Below the pieces are notes generated by a model that was not told where the DNA came from, searched no databases, and saw nothing but the letters and a program-made list of their open reading frames with translations. Positions 12,187 to 59,887 of a stretch of 64,000 nt of DNA are shown here, piece after piece (position 1 is the first letter of the stretch; each line of letters begins with the position of its first letter). Location of the stretch: NCBI GenBank assembly GCA_030753015.1, contig JASMDC010000018.1, positions 1 through 64,000 on the forward strand, given 5' to 3'. The stretch comes from Candidatus Undinarchaeales archaeon. GTDB lineage: Archaea; SpSt-1190; JASMDC01. The position numbers and the translations under genes were made by a program.

Positions 12187-13602
12187 TTATTCCTCTACCT
12201 TGGCGGGCTCGGGCTCTGGTTGTGGTTCCGGCTTCTTCTCCTTCTTCTTACCCTTGCCCGTGAGGAAGAAGCCCATTATCGAGTTGGCATAGGAAACGGC
12301 GCCGATGAGGACCAGCCCGATACCGCCCATCGTTCGCTTCTCCAGACTGATCTTCACCTGGTCGCGGATGTTGCTGATGTAGATCTTGGACACGCCAAGA
12401 GCGATGCGGCTCTCAAGTTTCTCACCCTCCATCCGACTCATGATGGGCCCGTCGTCATCGAGGATCGCGGTGACCTTCGTGCCCAGCTTCATGAACCCGA
12501 AGAGCAGCACACCGGCGATCATCAGTGCGATGCCGAAGTACTTGAAGGCGTCCTTGAACCCTGTAGAGATGCTCAGGCTCAGCACCCCGTTGATGAGGAA
12601 CAGTCCTCCTCCGAGGATGAGGTCGAGCACCACGAAGATGATGAGACCCGTCTTGAGCTTTCCGTTGAGCTCGGCAGGGGTCAGTTTATCGTTCACCAGG
12701 GGGAACACCATGGCGATGGGGCTTGACAGCAGGGGGAGGGCGATGGCGAAGATGGCCTCGGGGCCCCGCTCCTGGAACATCGCCTTGGGTTCGGAGAGCG
12801 AGCCGGAGAGGCCGAGGTTCATCTCCTTGTACTTCTTCGAGAAGTCAGCGGTCCCCTTCACGCTCGCCTGGAGTTCCTTGAACTTGGTGACCTGGGGATC
12901 GGTGATGTTCAGGATCGTGTCCGCGCCAAGGACCTTCCCAGCGGTCTGGATGCTGATAACGAGGGTATCGCCCAAAGCGTTCCCGTAGAGGTTCTCAACC
13001 TTCTCATCCATGCCCTTCTTCGCACCGGGCTCGGTAAGCTCGGCCTCGCGGATCGCGGCTAGCTGAATCTGAGCTACGAGCTCCTTTTTGATCTCCTCGG
13101 TATCGCTCTCCTCGATCATCTTCCTGGAAAGCAGCTGTTTCTGCTCGCTCGTCAGCTCGAGCTTGTCGACACCCAGCTTATTGTGCAGGTCCTTCGCCGC
13201 AAGCTCCTCTTCCATCTTGTCGAAGAGGATGGTGCCCACGGCTGTGTTCACCTTATCCTTATCAGACTCGGCTATCCCCTCCACGAGGTCAGTCTTCGTC
13301 TGACCCTCGAGCTCGAACTCGTCGTGCTCCGCGTCGATGGCGACGACGATGATGTCCACTATCTTCTCGAGGTCATCGTCCTGTATCAGTACATCGAGGC
13401 TCGCCTTCATGCTCCCCTCGGTGGAGAGGTAGAAGGCGAAGAACATCTCGGCAGTAAGCAACACTGTGATTATCAGCAACGCCGCAAGCATCATGTTCAG
13501 CATACCACGAACGAGCGAAACCACCACAACACCAAGCACGATTGCGAGCACGGCGGCCACAGCGATCATGAGCGGTCCGGACATCAGCATCTCAAGTCCC
13601 AT
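12187..13602 (-). CDS. Hypothetical multi-pass membrane protein
   Basis: Two N-terminal TM helices, a helical soluble domain, about four C-terminal TM helices and a K/P/E-rich tail; TTTTTAAA box upstream. Confidence 0.8.
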   Translation of the reverse strand: MGLEMLMSGPLMIAVAAVLAIVLGVVVVSLVRGMLNMMLAALLIITVLLTAEMFFAFYLSTEGSMKASLDVLIQDDDLEKIVDIIVVAIDAEHDEFELEGQTKTDLVEGIAESDKDKVNTAVGTILFDKMEEELAAKDLHNKLGVDKLELTSEQKQLLSRKMIEESDTEEIKKELVAQIQLAAIREAELTEPGAKKGMDEKVENLYGNALGDTLVISIQTAGKVLGADTILNITDPQVTKFKELQASVKGTADFSKKYKEMNLGLSGSLSEPKAMFQERGPEAIFAIALPLLSSPIAMVFPLVNDKLTPAELNGKLKTGLIIFVVLDLILGGGLFLINGVLSLSISTGFKDAFKYFGIALMIAGVLLFGFMKLGTKVTAILDDDGPIMSRMEGEKLESRIALGVSKIYISNIRDQVKISLEKRTMGGIGLVLIGAVSYANSIMGFFLTGKGKKKEKKPEPQPEPEPAKVEE

Positions 13603-13698
13603 AGGATTGCACCGGCGGTCAAGGTAGGCGCTCTCCTTTAAAAAGGTTCACCCGTCCGTGCCAAAAGGTTTTTTAACAGGCCGGTCTACCGTCCTTCC

Positions 13699-13840
13699 CG
13701 CGCGGATGATGAGGTGTAACACCCACTGACCTTGCCCGATGAAGAGTATTTCGCTAGCCTAGTCCGAAAGGGCGATGACAGCAAACTGTCTCTCTGAGAT
13801 GTGCGGGGTATGACGAACGGTTGGTAGCTTTTGACGCGCG
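13699..13840 (+). ncRNA. Box C/D guide sRNA with four C/D units, or two fused dual-guide sRNAs
   Basis: C boxes ATGATGA 13706, ATGAAGA 13739, ATGACAG 13775 and ATGACGA 13810. D boxes CTGA 13726, CCGA 13764, CTGA 13794 and TTGA 13831. Terminal stem CGCGCG 13699-13704 / 13835-13840. TTTTTTAA TATA box about 25 nt upstream. Confidence 0.75.
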
Positions 13841-13842
13841 TC

Positions 13843-14457
13843 CTACCGAACTTTCAGTTCGACCTTACTTACTAGTCCCTCCACCCACGTCACCACGGCA
13901 TGCCCCTCGGTGATGGGTGGTGTGTTCACCAACCAGGTATCAGTGGCCTCGTACCGCATGATCTGTGGGCTGTGGACGTGGCCGGAAAGGGAGAGTGAGG
14001 GGGAGAGTGAGGCCACGAGGTGCGTGATAGTCGAACACCCTCGCCAGAGAGGGCGGGGCGACTCGTGGGTGAGGAGCACGTCGACGTGACCGGCCTCCTT
14101 CAGACGTGCTACTTCAGCCTTTCTGAAGTGACCACGCTTACGCGGTCGCTCGGCCCACACGCCCCCGAGAGCGCCAGCCGTGGCATCGAGCTCGGGGATC
14201 CGTGCGACCGTTCCCGATGGGATGAGGGTGAGCCCACGGAACGTCCGTCGACCGGTAAGGATATCGTCCACCTGTTGCCAATCCTCATGGTTCCCGGGGA
14301 CAGCGTACACGGGGATTTCGGAGTCCCAGTACCCTTCGGCGTCACCGAGCACGAAGATGAGGTCGACGCGCTCGTCGGCAGCGGCTTCTCGGGCGAGATC
14401 GGCACGTCCATGGAGGTCCGAGCAGCATAGGATGCGGACCGTGTCGTTGCCTCCCAT
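13843..14457 (-). CDS. Calcineurin-like metallophosphoesterase
   Basis: SDLHG, LGD, GNHE, THE and GHVH motifs. The ATG at 14457 is preferred over the 14508 start. Confidence 0.9.
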   Translation of the reverse strand: MGGNDTVRILCCSDLHGRADLAREAAADERVDLIFVLGDAEGYWDSEIPVYAVPGNHEDWQQVDDILTGRRTFRGLTLIPSGTVARIPELDATAGALGGVWAERPRKRGHFRKAEVARLKEAGHVDVLLTHESPRPLWRGCSTITHLVASLSPSLSLSGHVHSPQIMRYEATDTWLVNTPPITEGHAVVTWVEGLVSKVELKVR

Positions 14458-14532
14458 ATCGGATCCCACCGCCGTAGGCGGCGCCCCGGGAACCTTTAAA
14501 TATCTCACGACATCTGCTCAGGACGAAGCAAC

Positions 14533-15777
14533 ATGGAAGATTCAGAACTCATCAAGAAGGTCGCAACGGGCGAGGTCAGACTCCACCAAGTCGAGGGTCT
14601 TGTGGACGGCGACATCGACCGCGCCACCGAGATCCGACGGGTCGCCCTCGAACAGGCCTTAGGAGTTTCCCTCGAGAACTTGGGCTCCAGCGCGATCGAG
14701 ATGAGCATCACACGTGCCAGGAACGTCGAGAATGCCATAGGGTGGACACAGATCCCCACCGGGATAGCTGGCCCGATCAAGGTCACGGGCGAGTATGCCG
14801 ACGGTAACTACTATCTGCCCATGGCCACGACCGAGGGCGCGCTGCTGGCCTCGGTGGCCCGGGGCTGCTCGGCCATCTCCAAGTCCGGCGGCGCTACGGC
14901 CCGCGTGCTCCGCTCCCTGATGACACGTGCTCCTGTGATGAAGGTGCCGGACACCGACCATGCCGTACAGCTCAAGCGATGGATCGAGGAGAACTTCGAC
15001 AAGGTGGCGGCGGCCTTCAAGGGTGACGAGCCCTTTGTATGGCTGCGGGAACTAAAGATCTGGATCGTCGGGCGGAACGTGTTCATCAGGTTCCTTGCCG
15101 ATCCTGCTGATGCCATGGGCATGAACATGATCTCGAAAGGGAGCCGTGCTGCCTGTGACTTCATCAGCGAGCACAATCCTTACGCCATCCTCATCGCCAC
15201 CTCCGGGAACCTCTGCGTCGACAAGAAGCCCTCGGCAATGAACTGGATCGAGGGAAGGGGCAAGACCGTCCAGGCCGATGTGATCCTTCCCCGGGAGATC
15301 GTCCAGAAGATGTTCAAATGCACGCCCGAGGCCCTCTCGGACGTGGCCTACCGGAAGCTGTACATAGGTGGCGCTCAGGCCGCGGCCTACGGCTTCAATG
15401 CGCACGTGGCGAACATCATCGCGGCTCTCTTCATCGCAACGGGACAGGATCCCGCCCAGGTCGTGGAATCGTCCATGTCGATGGTCACAGCCGAGGTTAC
15501 GGATGAAGGTGACCTCTATGCCAGCATCACCCTTCCATCGCTCGAGGTCGCTACACTCGGTGGTGGGACAGGGCTCCCCACCCAGCTCGAGGCGCAGAAC
15601 ATCCTTGGATGCTCAGGTCCGAACACGAAGGACCCGGGCGCCAACGCCAAGAAAATCGCCGAGATCTTCGCTGCAGCGGCCCTTGCCGGGGAACTTTCCC
15701 TTCTGGGCGCACTGGCTGCTGGCCATCTGGTAACAGCCCACGAACGCCTGGGACGCGGCAACGTGACCAAGGAGTGA
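14533..15777 (+). CDS. hmgA: 3-hydroxy-3-methylglutaryl-CoA reductase, class I
   Basis: ENAIG, PMATTEGALLAS, DAMGMNM, GNLCVDKKP, GQDPAQ, GGGTGL and a C-terminal catalytic His (AHERLGR). Confidence 0.97.
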   Translation: MEDSELIKKVATGEVRLHQVEGLVDGDIDRATEIRRVALEQALGVSLENLGSSAIEMSITRARNVENAIGWTQIPTGIAGPIKVTGEYADGNYYLPMATTEGALLASVARGCSAISKSGGATARVLRSLMTRAPVMKVPDTDHAVQLKRWIEENFDKVAAAFKGDEPFVWLRELKIWIVGRNVFIRFLADPADAMGMNMISKGSRAACDFISEHNPYAILIATSGNLCVDKKPSAMNWIEGRGKTVQADVILPREIVQKMFKCTPEALSDVAYRKLYIGGAQAAAYGFNAHVANIIAALFIATGQDPAQVVESSMSMVTAEVTDEGDLYASITLPSLEVATLGGGTGLPTQLEAQNILGCSGPNTKDPGANAKKIAEIFAAAALAGELSLLGALAAGHLVTAHERLGRGNVTKE

Positions 15778-59780: not shown

Positions 59781-59887
59781 TGGGCCCGCGGGGATTTGAA
59801 CCCCGGACCTCCCGGTTATCAGCCTCGCCTCGCCCGGGGGAACACCCCGTACGATCGGACGCTCTAACCTAGCTGAGCCACGGGCCC
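59781..59887 (-). tRNA. tRNA-Ile(GAU) with 32-nt intron at position 30/31 (intron 59824-59855); CCA not encoded
   Basis: After intron removal the cloverleaf is complete: GGGCCCG acceptor, GCTC/GAGC D stem, TCCGG-CTGATAA-CCGGG anticodon arm and CGGGG-TTCAAAT-CCCCG T arm. A BHB motif sits at the junctions and a TTTTTAAA box lies upstream. Confidence 0.93.

Follow-up and report, generated by a model that had tools for sequence, protein, structure and literature searches.

Archaeal box C/D sRNAs are described as ~50-70 nt long, with exactly two guides. The window analysed here, a 64,000-nucleotide stretch of contig JASMDC010000018.1 from a Candidatus Undinarchaeales archaeon, holds on its forward strand, at 13699-13840, four C-like/D-like box pairs within one closing stem, which raises the question of how four guides would be arranged in a single RNA. 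Judged by its sequence relationships, 13699-13840 (+) is a conserved box C/D methylation-guide gene, and we consider it probable (roughly 0.7) that it encodes, as one gene, a double box C/D sRNA of nested layout. The host would be the lineage's A-loop guide sRNA (in order C box, guide 1, D', then C', guide 4 and D), and a 60-nt second sRNA (13738-13797), running from bulge and C box through D box, would sit in the host's D'-C' hairpin loop. The order in this inner unit is C box, guide 2, degenerate D', GAAA-capped hairpin, C', guide 3 and D. The features are as follows, with LSU positions given for the rRNA of the same-genus genome G001.

13664..13677, + strand: promoter-like element, purine-rich AAAAGG followed by TATA-like TTTTTTAA (13670-77)
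13699-13840, + strand: proposed nested box C/D sRNA gene, with four C-like/D-like box pairs, closing stem and TATA-like box
13699..13704, + strand: terminal stem, 5' strand CGCGCG, pairs with 13835-13840
13705..13712, + strand: outer C box G-AUGAUGA, bulge G-A-U at 13705-07, tandem GA at 13708-09
13713..13725, + strand: outer D' guide (guide 1) of 13 nt, pairing with LSU 2628-34 through 13718-24
13726..13729, + strand: outer D' box CUGA, CAGA in G001 and the X17/X18 contigs
13730..13735, + strand: connecting helix, 5' strand CCUUGC, pairs with 13803-08 and begins directly 3' of D'
13738..13745, + strand: inner C box GAUGAAGA, preceded by C13737, which is able to pair with G13798
13746..13757, + strand: inner D' guide (guide 2) of 12 nt, matching LSU 2020-30 through positions 2-12 upstream of D'
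13758..13761, + strand: inner D' box CCUA, degenerate, CUGA at the homologous place in G002
13762..13773, + strand: internal hairpin GUCC-GAAA-GGGC, closes the inner C'/D' motif
13774..13781, + strand: inner C' box GAUGACAG, compare GAUGACC after the internal hairpin in the genome's other sRNAs
13782..13793, + strand: inner D guide (guide 3) of 12 nt, pairing with LSU 2676-86 through positions 2-12
13794..13797, + strand: inner D box CUGA, from the sequence
13798..13802, + strand: irregular junction GAUGU, between inner D box and connecting helix
13803..13808, + strand: connecting helix, 3' strand GCGGGG, pairs with 13730-35
13809..13816, + strand: outer C' box, bulge U-A-U then GACGA, aligns with relatives
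13817..13830, + strand: outer D guide (guide 4) of 14 nt, pairing with LSU 2513-20 through 13823-30 (8 bp)
13831..13834, + strand: outer D box UUGA, CUGA in relatives, the C to U deviation giving a G-U pair
13835..13840, + strand: terminal stem, 3' strand CGCGCG, pairs with 13699-704

An earlier note on this DNA had described four box/guide units in series, and the letters are as it gave them: ATGATGA (13706-12), 13 nt and CTGA (13726-29) in unit 1; ATGAAGA (13739-45), 18 nt and CCGA (13764-67) in unit 2; ATGACAG (13775-81), 12 nt and CTGA (13794-97) in unit 3; and ATGACGA (13810-16), 14 nt and TTGA (13831-34) in unit 4. Its D-to-C linkers of 7-12 nt measure 9, 7 and 12 nt, and its CGCGCG/CGCGCG closing stem (13699-704 against 13835-40) has the K-turn, the first GA being preceded by a G-A-U bulge. 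All elements of the double-length gene with four guides and one terminal K-turn stem lie where the note had placed them. The promised TATA box is present as well: TATA-like TTTTTTAA follows AAAAGG and lies 22-29 nt upstream of the terminal stem's first base. The promoter-like element has the same letters in G001, and TTAAAAA occurs at a comparable distance in two relatives, G005 and G007. What did not survive comparison with relatives is the equivalence of the four units, as units 1 and 4 appear to be the halves of one ancestral sRNA and units 2 and 3 an inserted sRNA. The note's other suggestion, a fused pair of sRNAs, was essentially right, with the second sRNA placed within the D'-C' linker of the first.

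Over their full length, the outer 5' and 3' halves align with sRNAs of 76-81 nt from G009, G005 and G007, and the alignment has one ~70-column gap, where the inner sRNA sits. The outer C' box aligns with GAUGACGA (G005), GAUGAAGA (G009) and GAUGAGGA (G007). By these alignments, the outer halves, and likewise guide 2, are homologous to ordinary sRNAs of relatives. A family covariance model, R2, has matches in 13 of the 17 genomes of the phylum. The window's own genome (G000) scores 80 bits (E 6.9e-21) but is one of the five training rows; independent matches come from G003, at 44 bits, and from seven more genomes, at 20.6-33 bits. The locus has the layout of the A-loop guide family, whose D' guide points at U2552; this layout is a C box, a AGUGAACACCCU-like D' guide and CUGA, then C', second guide and D, in one terminal stem. 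Its length is 142 nt, compared to 58-89 nt for the relatives' family sRNAs, and its parsed D'-C' linker is 80 nt in both G000 and G001 versus 3-23 nt in 11/11 relatives. Without 13738-97 the linker would be 20 nt long and form a 6-bp hairpin, which is inside the relatives' range. Guide 1 and a guide-4-like guide occur in one sRNA in 5/11 relatives, where the D guides homologous to guide 4 end in GUAGCUU or GUAGCUA. Across the phylum's 15 other genomes, guides 2 and 3 were nowhere found together.

Within the genus, the RNA body differs between G000 and G001 at 2/140 positions, compared to 6/96 upstream and 16/80 downstream, and in a third lineage (the X17/X18 contigs) 2/142 nt are changed versus 5/96 and 12/120 in its flanks, so that the conservation block is sharp at 13699-13839. 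Both internal changes leave the tandem GA pairs intact: the outer D' varies only at its second box letter, outside the tandem G-A pairs, and U13763 is C in G001, where the hairpin's G-U pair becomes G-C. The outer C box shows no variation across all 5 rows of alignment A4. In the same alignment, 5 of the 8 scored pairs show two-sided changes when this genus is compared with three relatives, and all 5 belong to the terminal stem of 6 pairs; the share of paired cells is 87.5%, a value reached by 0/500 shuffles. The outermost stem pair, 13699-13840, is lost in G001 and the X17/X18 contigs (G>A), leaving 5 bp. The connecting helix and junction show zero covariation, their copies being identical here, and the helix's six consecutive fixed-register pairs have a chance of about (6/16)^6 = 0.003 by arithmetic. 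Since the locus DNA is also present in G001, and four more public runs have contigs that carry it, we take it to be real DNA. None of the listed runs that carry the locus is an RNA run, and the one RNA run listed contains next to none of its sequence words.

A search of the window's own assembly for rRNA found none, and the rRNA used for the target search was the LSU of G001, not of the window's own genome, with E. coli numbering from NC_000913.3 rrlH. The fifth nucleotide upstream of D or D' is paired for all four guides. The inner guides, both 12 nt, are matched in one common register by perfect 11-nt complements. Guide 2 (13746-56) is complementary to LSU 2020-30, placing G13753 opposite C2023 (E. 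coli C1934), and guide 3 (13782-92) to LSU 2676-86, placing U13789 opposite A2679 (E. coli A2600). Guide 4 has 8 bp, or 10 bp when box D's first two letters are included (13823-32 with LSU 2511-20), and its fifth nucleotide, A13826, lies opposite U2517 (E. coli U2438). The rRNA complements of at least 10 nt that the earlier note had proposed to look for are three, of 11, 11 and 10 nt, the last 2 nt of the 10 being inside TTGA. The LSU motifs it had named were verified for GAGACAG and AAGCUACC, whereas CUAGCGAAA was matched only as UAGCGAAA.

Guide 1, which the earlier note had left without an rRNA match, gave no complementary run of at least 8 against 36 tRNAs, LSU and SSU, and its 10-11-mer matches genome-wide were at chance level. 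Its target was found only after comparison with the relatives' guides, whose family D' consensus, AGUGAACACCCU+CUGA, is 1 nt shorter. Guide 1 is thereby placed as the A-loop guide of a phylum-wide family with a 1-nt insertion. It pairs over 7+4 bp with one bulge, as 13713-16 also pair with LSU 2635-38 if U13717 is bulged, and its fifth nucleotide, A13721, lies mid-way within the 7 perfect pairs, opposite U2631 (E. coli U2552 in the 23S A-loop). U2552 methylation is predicted in five of the seven archaea studied, according to excerpts of PMC4644070. The outer spacers measure 13 and 14 nt, both exceeding those of relatives by 1 nt.

An 11-mer complement to LSU+SSU arises by chance 0.13-0.17 times per 142-nt shuffle or window tile, or ~0.0013 times per position. 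Since both 11-mer matches are fixed at register 2-12 upstream of a D-type box, their joint chance is about 2e-6 by arithmetic. The four predicted target sites lie in domains IV and V, and 3/4 are within or beside published methylation hotspot helices (H68-71 and H90-93), which surround the peptidyl-transferase centre and subunit interface, with U2438 having no helix assignment.

For unit 2, the D' box had been read as CCGA, but this places C13759 opposite A2017 in a mismatch. CCUA lies 12 nt after the C box, and guide 2 recurs in G002 as C box, GAAUUUCGCUAG and CUGA, from which we place the inner D' at 13758-61. Guide 2 is also present, adjoining C box and CUGA, in the Rfam sR39 consensus. No Rfam C/D family reaches its gathering score at the locus, and the best sub-threshold match is sR39 itself (16.8 bits, E 0.1, gathering score 50), covering 13735-82 only. 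At least four other sRNAs of the genome (on C34, C37, C52 and the second C106 sRNA) have xxUA directly 5' of an internal hairpin. By inspection, the inner C'/D' motif of CCUA with GAUGACAG is degenerate, its second pair being A-U not A-G and followed by two mismatches. The two most degenerate boxes, CCUA and AUGACAG, then make up the inner sRNA's internal C'/D' pair, and degeneracy is expected at internal C'/D' boxes (PMC6009581, in part). The outer C'/D' (CUGA 13726-29 with GACGA 13812-16) forms, also by inspection, an internal K-motif with a 6-bp helix and 3-nt bulge, and the inner spacers, 12 and 12 nt, have the canonical ~12-nt length. The inner C/D K-turn has a single clean pair (C13737-G13798), then a 4-nt irregular junction. 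The junction's GAUG copies the insert's first four letters (13738-41), and 13798..13802 may be a vestige of the loop of the ancestral hairpin, involving microhomology or a target duplication.

From the outside inward, the nested RNA would fold as terminal stem and outer C/D K-turn, guides 1 and 4 antiparallel, outer C'/D' K-turn, the 6-bp helix 13730-35/13803-08 and irregular junction, inner C/D K-turn, guides 2 and 3 antiparallel, and the inner C'/D' motif closed by the GAAA hairpin. Each half would have the two-fold layout spanned by one Nop5 dimer, and the whole would therefore bind four copies each of L7Ae, Nop5 and fibrillarin, forming two sRNP modules end to end. The predicted product is 2'-O-methylation of LSU rRNA, at C1934 and A2600 via the strong inner guides and at U2552 and U2438 via the weaker outer ones. 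We infer transcription as one RNA, its persistence as one RNA, this protein stoichiometry and the methylation itself. The genome encodes the core proteins, with fibrillarin and Nop5 genes side by side on contig C47 (PF01269, 284 bits; PF01798, 205 bits) and the L7Ae gene on C40 (PF01248, 100 bits). It also has FtsJ-family matches of 35, 34 and 25 bits.

Free-energy folding did not single out the nested fold (z-score with flanks 0.16), and with guides and boxes held single-stranded the favoured fold had GCCC/GGGC and another stem. The box sequences alone also permit pairing of each D-type box with the next C-type box, which speaks against nesting. Tandem G-A pairs are possible for each neighbouring D/C pair, the linkers are close to K-loop sizes, and CCGA would form with GAUGACAG a more canonical tandem GA than CCUA does. 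Four units in series, closed into a square by one K-turn and three K-loops, or tandem 1+2 / 3+4 sRNAs could be drawn on these grounds, but we regard this as quite improbable. It would accept the 18-nt spacer of unit 2 and its mismatched fifth nucleotide, it runs counter to the joint occurrence of guides 1 and 4 in relatives and the absence of 2 with 3, and it would leave to chance (~0.003) that the two long linkers are complementary over 6 bp in exact K-turn register. The side-by-side doublet was rejected: the 1+2 / 3+4 split leaves neither half with a terminal stem, parts guides that are joined in relatives and makes the most degenerate boxes terminal. Least credible of all is that the locus has no functional RNA, either because its box-like words have come together by chance or because the gene is dead. 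The raw 10-mer complement count is only modestly unusual, being reached by 0.5% of 5000 shuffles and 6/900 window tiles, but chance would also have to produce the sharp conservation block, the homology with a phylum-wide sRNA family, the two in-register 11-bp complements and a promoter-like element at the right distance.

Two further explanations accept the nested layout and differ in what becomes of the RNA. One transcript might serve as a precursor only, from which the inner sRNA is cut out, perhaps circularised, while the outer sRNA is split or degraded; we judge this unlikely, although it has precedent. As described in portions of PMC7994747, archaeal C/D genes are clustered in twos and threes, polycistronic and processed, with circular forms common, and eukaryotic doublet scaRNAs are partly processed into monomers (PMC4041459, in part). 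Junction 13798-802 and C13736 are also unpaired and accessible. The inner unit, however, lacks a terminal stem of its own and has only the C13737-G13798 pair and the borrowed host helix, when a 5-bp terminal stem closes every one of the seven ordinary sRNAs found in the genome. Drawing by hand gave no bulge-helix-bulge splice motif at the insert borders, and the outer halves are conserved as much as the inner part. Rather less probable is that the inner sRNA alone guides and the outer one is a decayed carrier, giving promoter, terminal stem and end protection. The 1-nt insertions in both outer guides and their pairing of 7(+4) and 8 bp, when the inner guides keep 11 perfect pairs, would fit decay, and FtsJ-family proteins might make Um2552 guide-free. 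Yet the outer guides and boxes stay the same across three lineages whose flanks diverge by 6-20%, guide 1 keeps its fifth-nucleotide position central in 7 perfect pairs on U2552, and 8 bp is the minimum for target prediction in the accessible part of PMC6009581.

A more specific form of this reading is tentative, and we place it somewhat below even odds. In it, the 141-nt RNA would be a natural single-chain double sRNP with four protein sets, in two modules stacked on a shared helix, arising from insertion of a mobile, stemless sRNA. The U2438, U2552, A2600 and C1934 segments of nascent 23S would be brought together on one particle, so that their methylation, and perhaps also their folding, would be coupled. 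A mobile unit of boxes and guides would have inserted into the loop of the other sRNA's internal hairpin. 'Insertional mobilization' of guide units is one mechanism considered in passages of PMC4644070, and the insertion, if true, would directly record the mobility that has long been suspected for archaeal C/D sRNA genes.

Canonical archaeal C/D sRNAs have a C box of the form RUGAUGA, a D box CUGA and guides complementary to rRNA or tRNA over 8-12 nt. The locus resembles them in its C/D boxes, terminal stem, K-turn, ~12-nt guides, fifth-nucleotide rule and rRNA targets, in a genome with L7Ae, Nop5 and fibrillarin genes, and its outer halves are homologous to the sRNAs of 11 relatives. It differs in having four guides, four box pairs and an 80-nt D'-C' linker that would itself be a complete sRNA. 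Clustered archaeal C/D genes and tRNA-sRNA dicistrons place several guide units in one transcription unit (PMC7994747 and PMC3491384, both in part); those units lie side by side and are cut apart, whereas here they would be nested, sharing a helix, with the inner unit lacking a terminal stem. The doublet scaRNAs mgU2-19/30, mgU2-25/61 and mgU12-22/U4-8 have two box C/D domains and several guides per RNA, as the parts seen of PMC4041459 describe, but they are eukaryotic and unrelated in sequence to 13699-13840, with tandem rather than nested domains, a spacer (175 nt in mgU2-19/30), snRNA targets and Cajal bodies. C/D sRNAs also lie inside another structured RNA gene in the tRNA-Trp and tRNA-Met introns of some archaea (PMC3491384, in part), where the host is a tRNA and release is by bulge-helix-bulge splicing; here the host would be an sRNA, and no such motif was seen. 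The di-sRNP model has four core-protein sets and four guides in one particle (PMC3608112, in part) but on two separate sRNA molecules, in contrast to the four guides proposed here on one covalent chain, end to end. The sections of PMC3608112 at hand present the active particle as disputed, between one sRNA with two protein sets and two sRNAs with four sets and four guides. We found no nested or four-guide archaeal C/D sRNA in the open literature searched, which included portions of PMC7994747, PMC3491384, PMC6009581, PMC3695527 and PMC4644070.

If this is a natural two-module RNA, it would offer a ready-made substrate for testing how the modules sit together, show that a D'-C' loop tolerates a 60-nt structured insert, and provide a concrete case of one sRNA gene inserted into another. 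Its apparent scope is one genus of uncultured marine archaea, known from metagenomes. Gene finders for sRNAs that fix a maximum loop length would miss nested genes.

Scanned with the strict canonical sRNA pattern, the genome gave 0 matches because D' boxes are degenerate in this lineage. Looser scans found the seven ordinary sRNAs, whose degenerate D' boxes lie 5' of an internal hairpin, four ending in UA. The 63 matches of a loose single-unit scan were mostly within coding sequence and were set aside except one on C32. Among candidates above 95 nt, 18 others were rejected (17 inside ORFs of at least 245 aa, and C25:198-339 without sRNA layout), leaving 13699-13840 as the sole one with C box, D box, stem and sRNA architecture outside a long ORF. 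In two metagenome pattern scans for wider homologues there were 0 matches, and the corresponding scan of genome contigs returned 6 loci, L012 and five bacterial ones that we took as chance; these scans may leave out near-identical records. The neighbours of the locus are a metallophosphoesterase gene and an unassigned 471-aa ORF; G005 and G009 have DUF1858 and DUF1616 neighbours in common, which the window locus does not share.

Every element of the candidate four-guide box C/D sRNA described in the earlier note (four box pairs, a closing stem and a TATA-like element) was found on the plus strand where it had been placed, and the observation is therefore accurate.

Elements of the RNA locus, identified from sequence (window coordinates)
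13670-77, plus strand, 22-29 nt upstream of the RNA: promoter-like TTTTTTAA, with AAAAGG just before it
13699-704 facing 13835-40, plus strand: terminal stem CGCGCG / CGCGCG
13706-12, plus strand: C-type box AUGAUGA
13726-29, plus strand: D-type box CUGA
13739-45, plus strand: C-type box AUGAAGA
13764-67, plus strand: D-type box CCGA
13775-81, plus strand: C-type box AUGACAG
13794-97, plus strand: D-type box CUGA
13810-16, plus strand: C-type box AUGACGA
13831-34, plus strand: D-type box UUGA

Minus-strand ORFs lie on both sides of the 240-nt gap that holds the locus: 12187-13602, without a Pfam match, and 13843-14508, a metallophosphoesterase gene that ends 3 nt past the sRNA. The latter adjoins an HMG-CoA reductase gene (14533-15777, plus strand; PF00368, 417 bits).

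The arrangement of the units differs from the four in series originally proposed. The linker helix, the build of the inner units and the outer halves found in relatives point to one sRNA nested within another as a single gene at 13699-13840, a reading to which we give a probability of about 70%. CCUUGC, the six nucleotides directly after the first D', pairs with GCGGGG, which is followed by a 3-nt bulge and then by the GA in the last C' box; this helix fits the K-turn geometry of the outer C'/D' pair. The helix shows no covariation among known copies, and free-energy folding of the window RNA was uninformative. With 13738-97 deleted in silico, the linker shrinks to 20 nt and folds into a hairpin of 6 bp around a 7-nt loop. 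The 60-nt inner unit has GAUG at both borders (13738-13741 and 13798-13801), possibly a microhomology or a target-site duplication from insertion, and the host may have received a stemless sRNA unit by insertion into its internal hairpin loop.

Scanning the genome for a C box, a D box and a terminal stem identified seven ordinary sRNAs of 70-83 nt, all with a degenerate D' ahead of an internal hairpin. In four (on contigs C34, C37 and C52, and the second on C106), the D' ends in UA right before the hairpin, followed by a GAUGACC-type C'. Because 13758-81 is built alike (CCUA, GUCC-GAAA-GGGC, GAUGACAG), units 2 and 3 read as one regular sRNA, in which a C box, a 12-nt guide and D' precede the hairpin, and C', a second 12-nt guide and D follow it. 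Of the two inner motifs, C'/D' is degenerate, and C/D is closed by a single clean pair beside an irregular junction. CCGA, with an 18-nt spacer and a mismatch facing the fifth nucleotide, was rejected as the inner D'.

Among the ordinary sRNAs, those at C34:18539-18620(-), C37:4689-4768(+) and C52:25528-25599(+) are paralogous, sharing the terminal stem CCGGG and the D' guide (A/U)GGAUUCUGG; their guides have no rRNA complement of at least 9 nt, the sole 9-mer match (C52) lying within the internal hairpin. Another ordinary C/D sRNA, of 71 nt at C32:4686-4756(-), illustrates from within the genome how this lineage builds its sRNAs, with a degenerate D' and then a hairpin; its D guide GUGACGGGCGAU is complementary to SSU 1340-48 of the same-genus genome G001.

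Over 260 nt, the copy of the locus in G001 is 93% identical, and the same locus is present in genome_contigs record L012. Only 2 of 140 positions differ from G001 across 13700-13839, compared to 6/96 in the upstream spacer and 16/80 downstream. In contigs from four further public runs, two (X16 and X19) match the locus exactly, while X17 and X18 represent a third variant whose only changes within the RNA are 13727 T>A and 13840 G>A, against 5 and 12 flanking changes. Changes within the RNA affect the D' second letter (CUGA to CAGA), the inner hairpin, where G-U becomes G-C in G001, and the outermost stem pair. Since the RNA has few changes and the flanks many, the conserved block coincides with the predicted RNA.

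We also compared relatives in a phylum sample of 17 genomes. A covariance model built on the nested fold recovered a 73-nt sRNA in G009, and BLAST with that sRNA recovered others in G005 and G007. In a five-row alignment, these ordinary sRNAs match the window RNA along its outer 5' half (C box, guide 1 and D') and again along its outer 3' half (C', guide 4 and D), with one long gap across the inner unit. Five of six terminal stem pairs stay paired despite changes on both sides (two lineages compared), and 87.5% of cells are paired over 8 scored pairs, with none of 500 shuffles and no slid register near it. Box conservation, which the earlier note had proposed to look for in relatives, holds for the outer boxes, which align in all three; the RNA body is near-invariant within the genus.

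A model of the A-loop guide family matches 13 of the 17 genomes. In 11 relatives, D' and C' are separated by a linker of 3-23 nt, whereas the linker is 80 nt in the window's genome and G001. Nine of the 11 have the D' guide core GUGAACACCC before CUGA (exactly AGUGAACACCCU in seven); this core complements the A-loop, its fifth nucleotide facing E. coli U2552, and window guide 1 is the same guide with one extra U. A guide-4-like D guide, with GUAGCUU or GUAGCUA at its end, occurs in 5/11. At a contig end, G002 has a C box, GAAUUUCGCUAG and CUGA, which reads as a separate sRNA carrying guide 2, its D' falling exactly at the window's CCUA. The guide 2+3 pair is absent from the 15 other-genus genomes of the phylum sample.

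No rRNA genes were found in the window's assembly, and complements were sought in the LSU of G001, which has an rRNA operon. The expected rRNA or tRNA complements exist for guides 2, 3 and 4, all in LSU: 13746-56 with 2020-30 (11 nt), 13782-92 with 2676-86 (11 nt) and 13823-32 with 2511-20 (10 nt, of which the final two fall within UUGA), all perfect. Guide 1 has no contiguous complement of at least 8 nt in LSU, SSU or 36 tRNAs; it forms 7 perfect pairs around U2552 and would add 4 with U13717 bulged out. Guides 2 and 3 both pair at positions 2-12, while outer guides 1 and 4 pair weakly. Chance yields an 11-mer complement at ~0.0013 per position and falls far short of explaining two that share a fixed register. 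By the targeting rule, the nucleotide to be modified lies opposite the fifth guide position upstream of D/D' (available text of PMC6009581). With G001 LSU aligned to E. coli rrlH and checked at three landmarks, the rule places the predicted targets at C1934 for guide 2 (taking CCUA at 13758-61 as its D'), at A2600 for guide 3 and at U2438 for guide 4. Three of the four predicted sites (all but U2438) lie within or adjoin the methylation hotspot helices, 68-71 and 90-93, given in section 5 of PMC7994747, and U2552 methylation is predicted in five species in the accessible part of PMC4644070. CGGUUGGU (13817-13825) within guide 4 and ACCAACCG within the C34 sRNA's D guide are complementary over 8 nt, probably by chance.

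Fibrillarin and Nop5 genes are neighbours in the genome, which also encodes L7Ae. The RNA would be transcribed from its own promoter; beyond this step, we infer that it would fold into two sRNA modules linked by the 6-bp helix, with L7Ae binding four K-motifs and each module carrying a Nop5 dimer and two fibrillarins. The inner module would target C1934 and A2600, and the outer module U2552 and U2438.

The window RNA scores above no Rfam family threshold but has the sequence-level characters of archaeal C/D sRNAs, and we regard the feature as real. Multi-unit arrangements described in the available portions of the sources are not nested, unlike the window RNA: side-by-side sRNA clusters (PMC7994747), tRNA-sRNA dicistrons and tRNA-intron sRNAs (PMC3491384) and eukaryotic doublet scaRNAs (PMC4041459). 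The di-sRNP model, as far as the excerpted PMC3608112 describes it, places four guides on two RNAs, whereas this locus has four on one predicted RNA. Our literature searches, supplements and subscription journals aside, turned up no archaeal C/D sRNA that is nested or has four guides. The finding bears on the RNA modification field, with the proposed nested sRNA confined to one genus.

The assembly, in which the window is contig C27 (3.85 Mb in total, 60% G+C, 98.9% complete, 5% contamination), is large compared to the 15 other-genus genomes of the phylum sample (each 0.6-1.2 Mb); it may be a large-genome lineage in a phylum of small genomes, or the bin may be misplaced or mixed, which would be worth a look. 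The LSU rRNA match in G005 (L037, C8:2635-6394) spans 3760 nt against a 2987-position model, which suggests at least one large insertion or intron in its 23S gene; that in G009 spans only 2135 nt. In the window, the tRNA gene at 59781-59887 (minus strand, 49 bits) probably carries an intron, since its match is 107 nt against a model of 71 positions.
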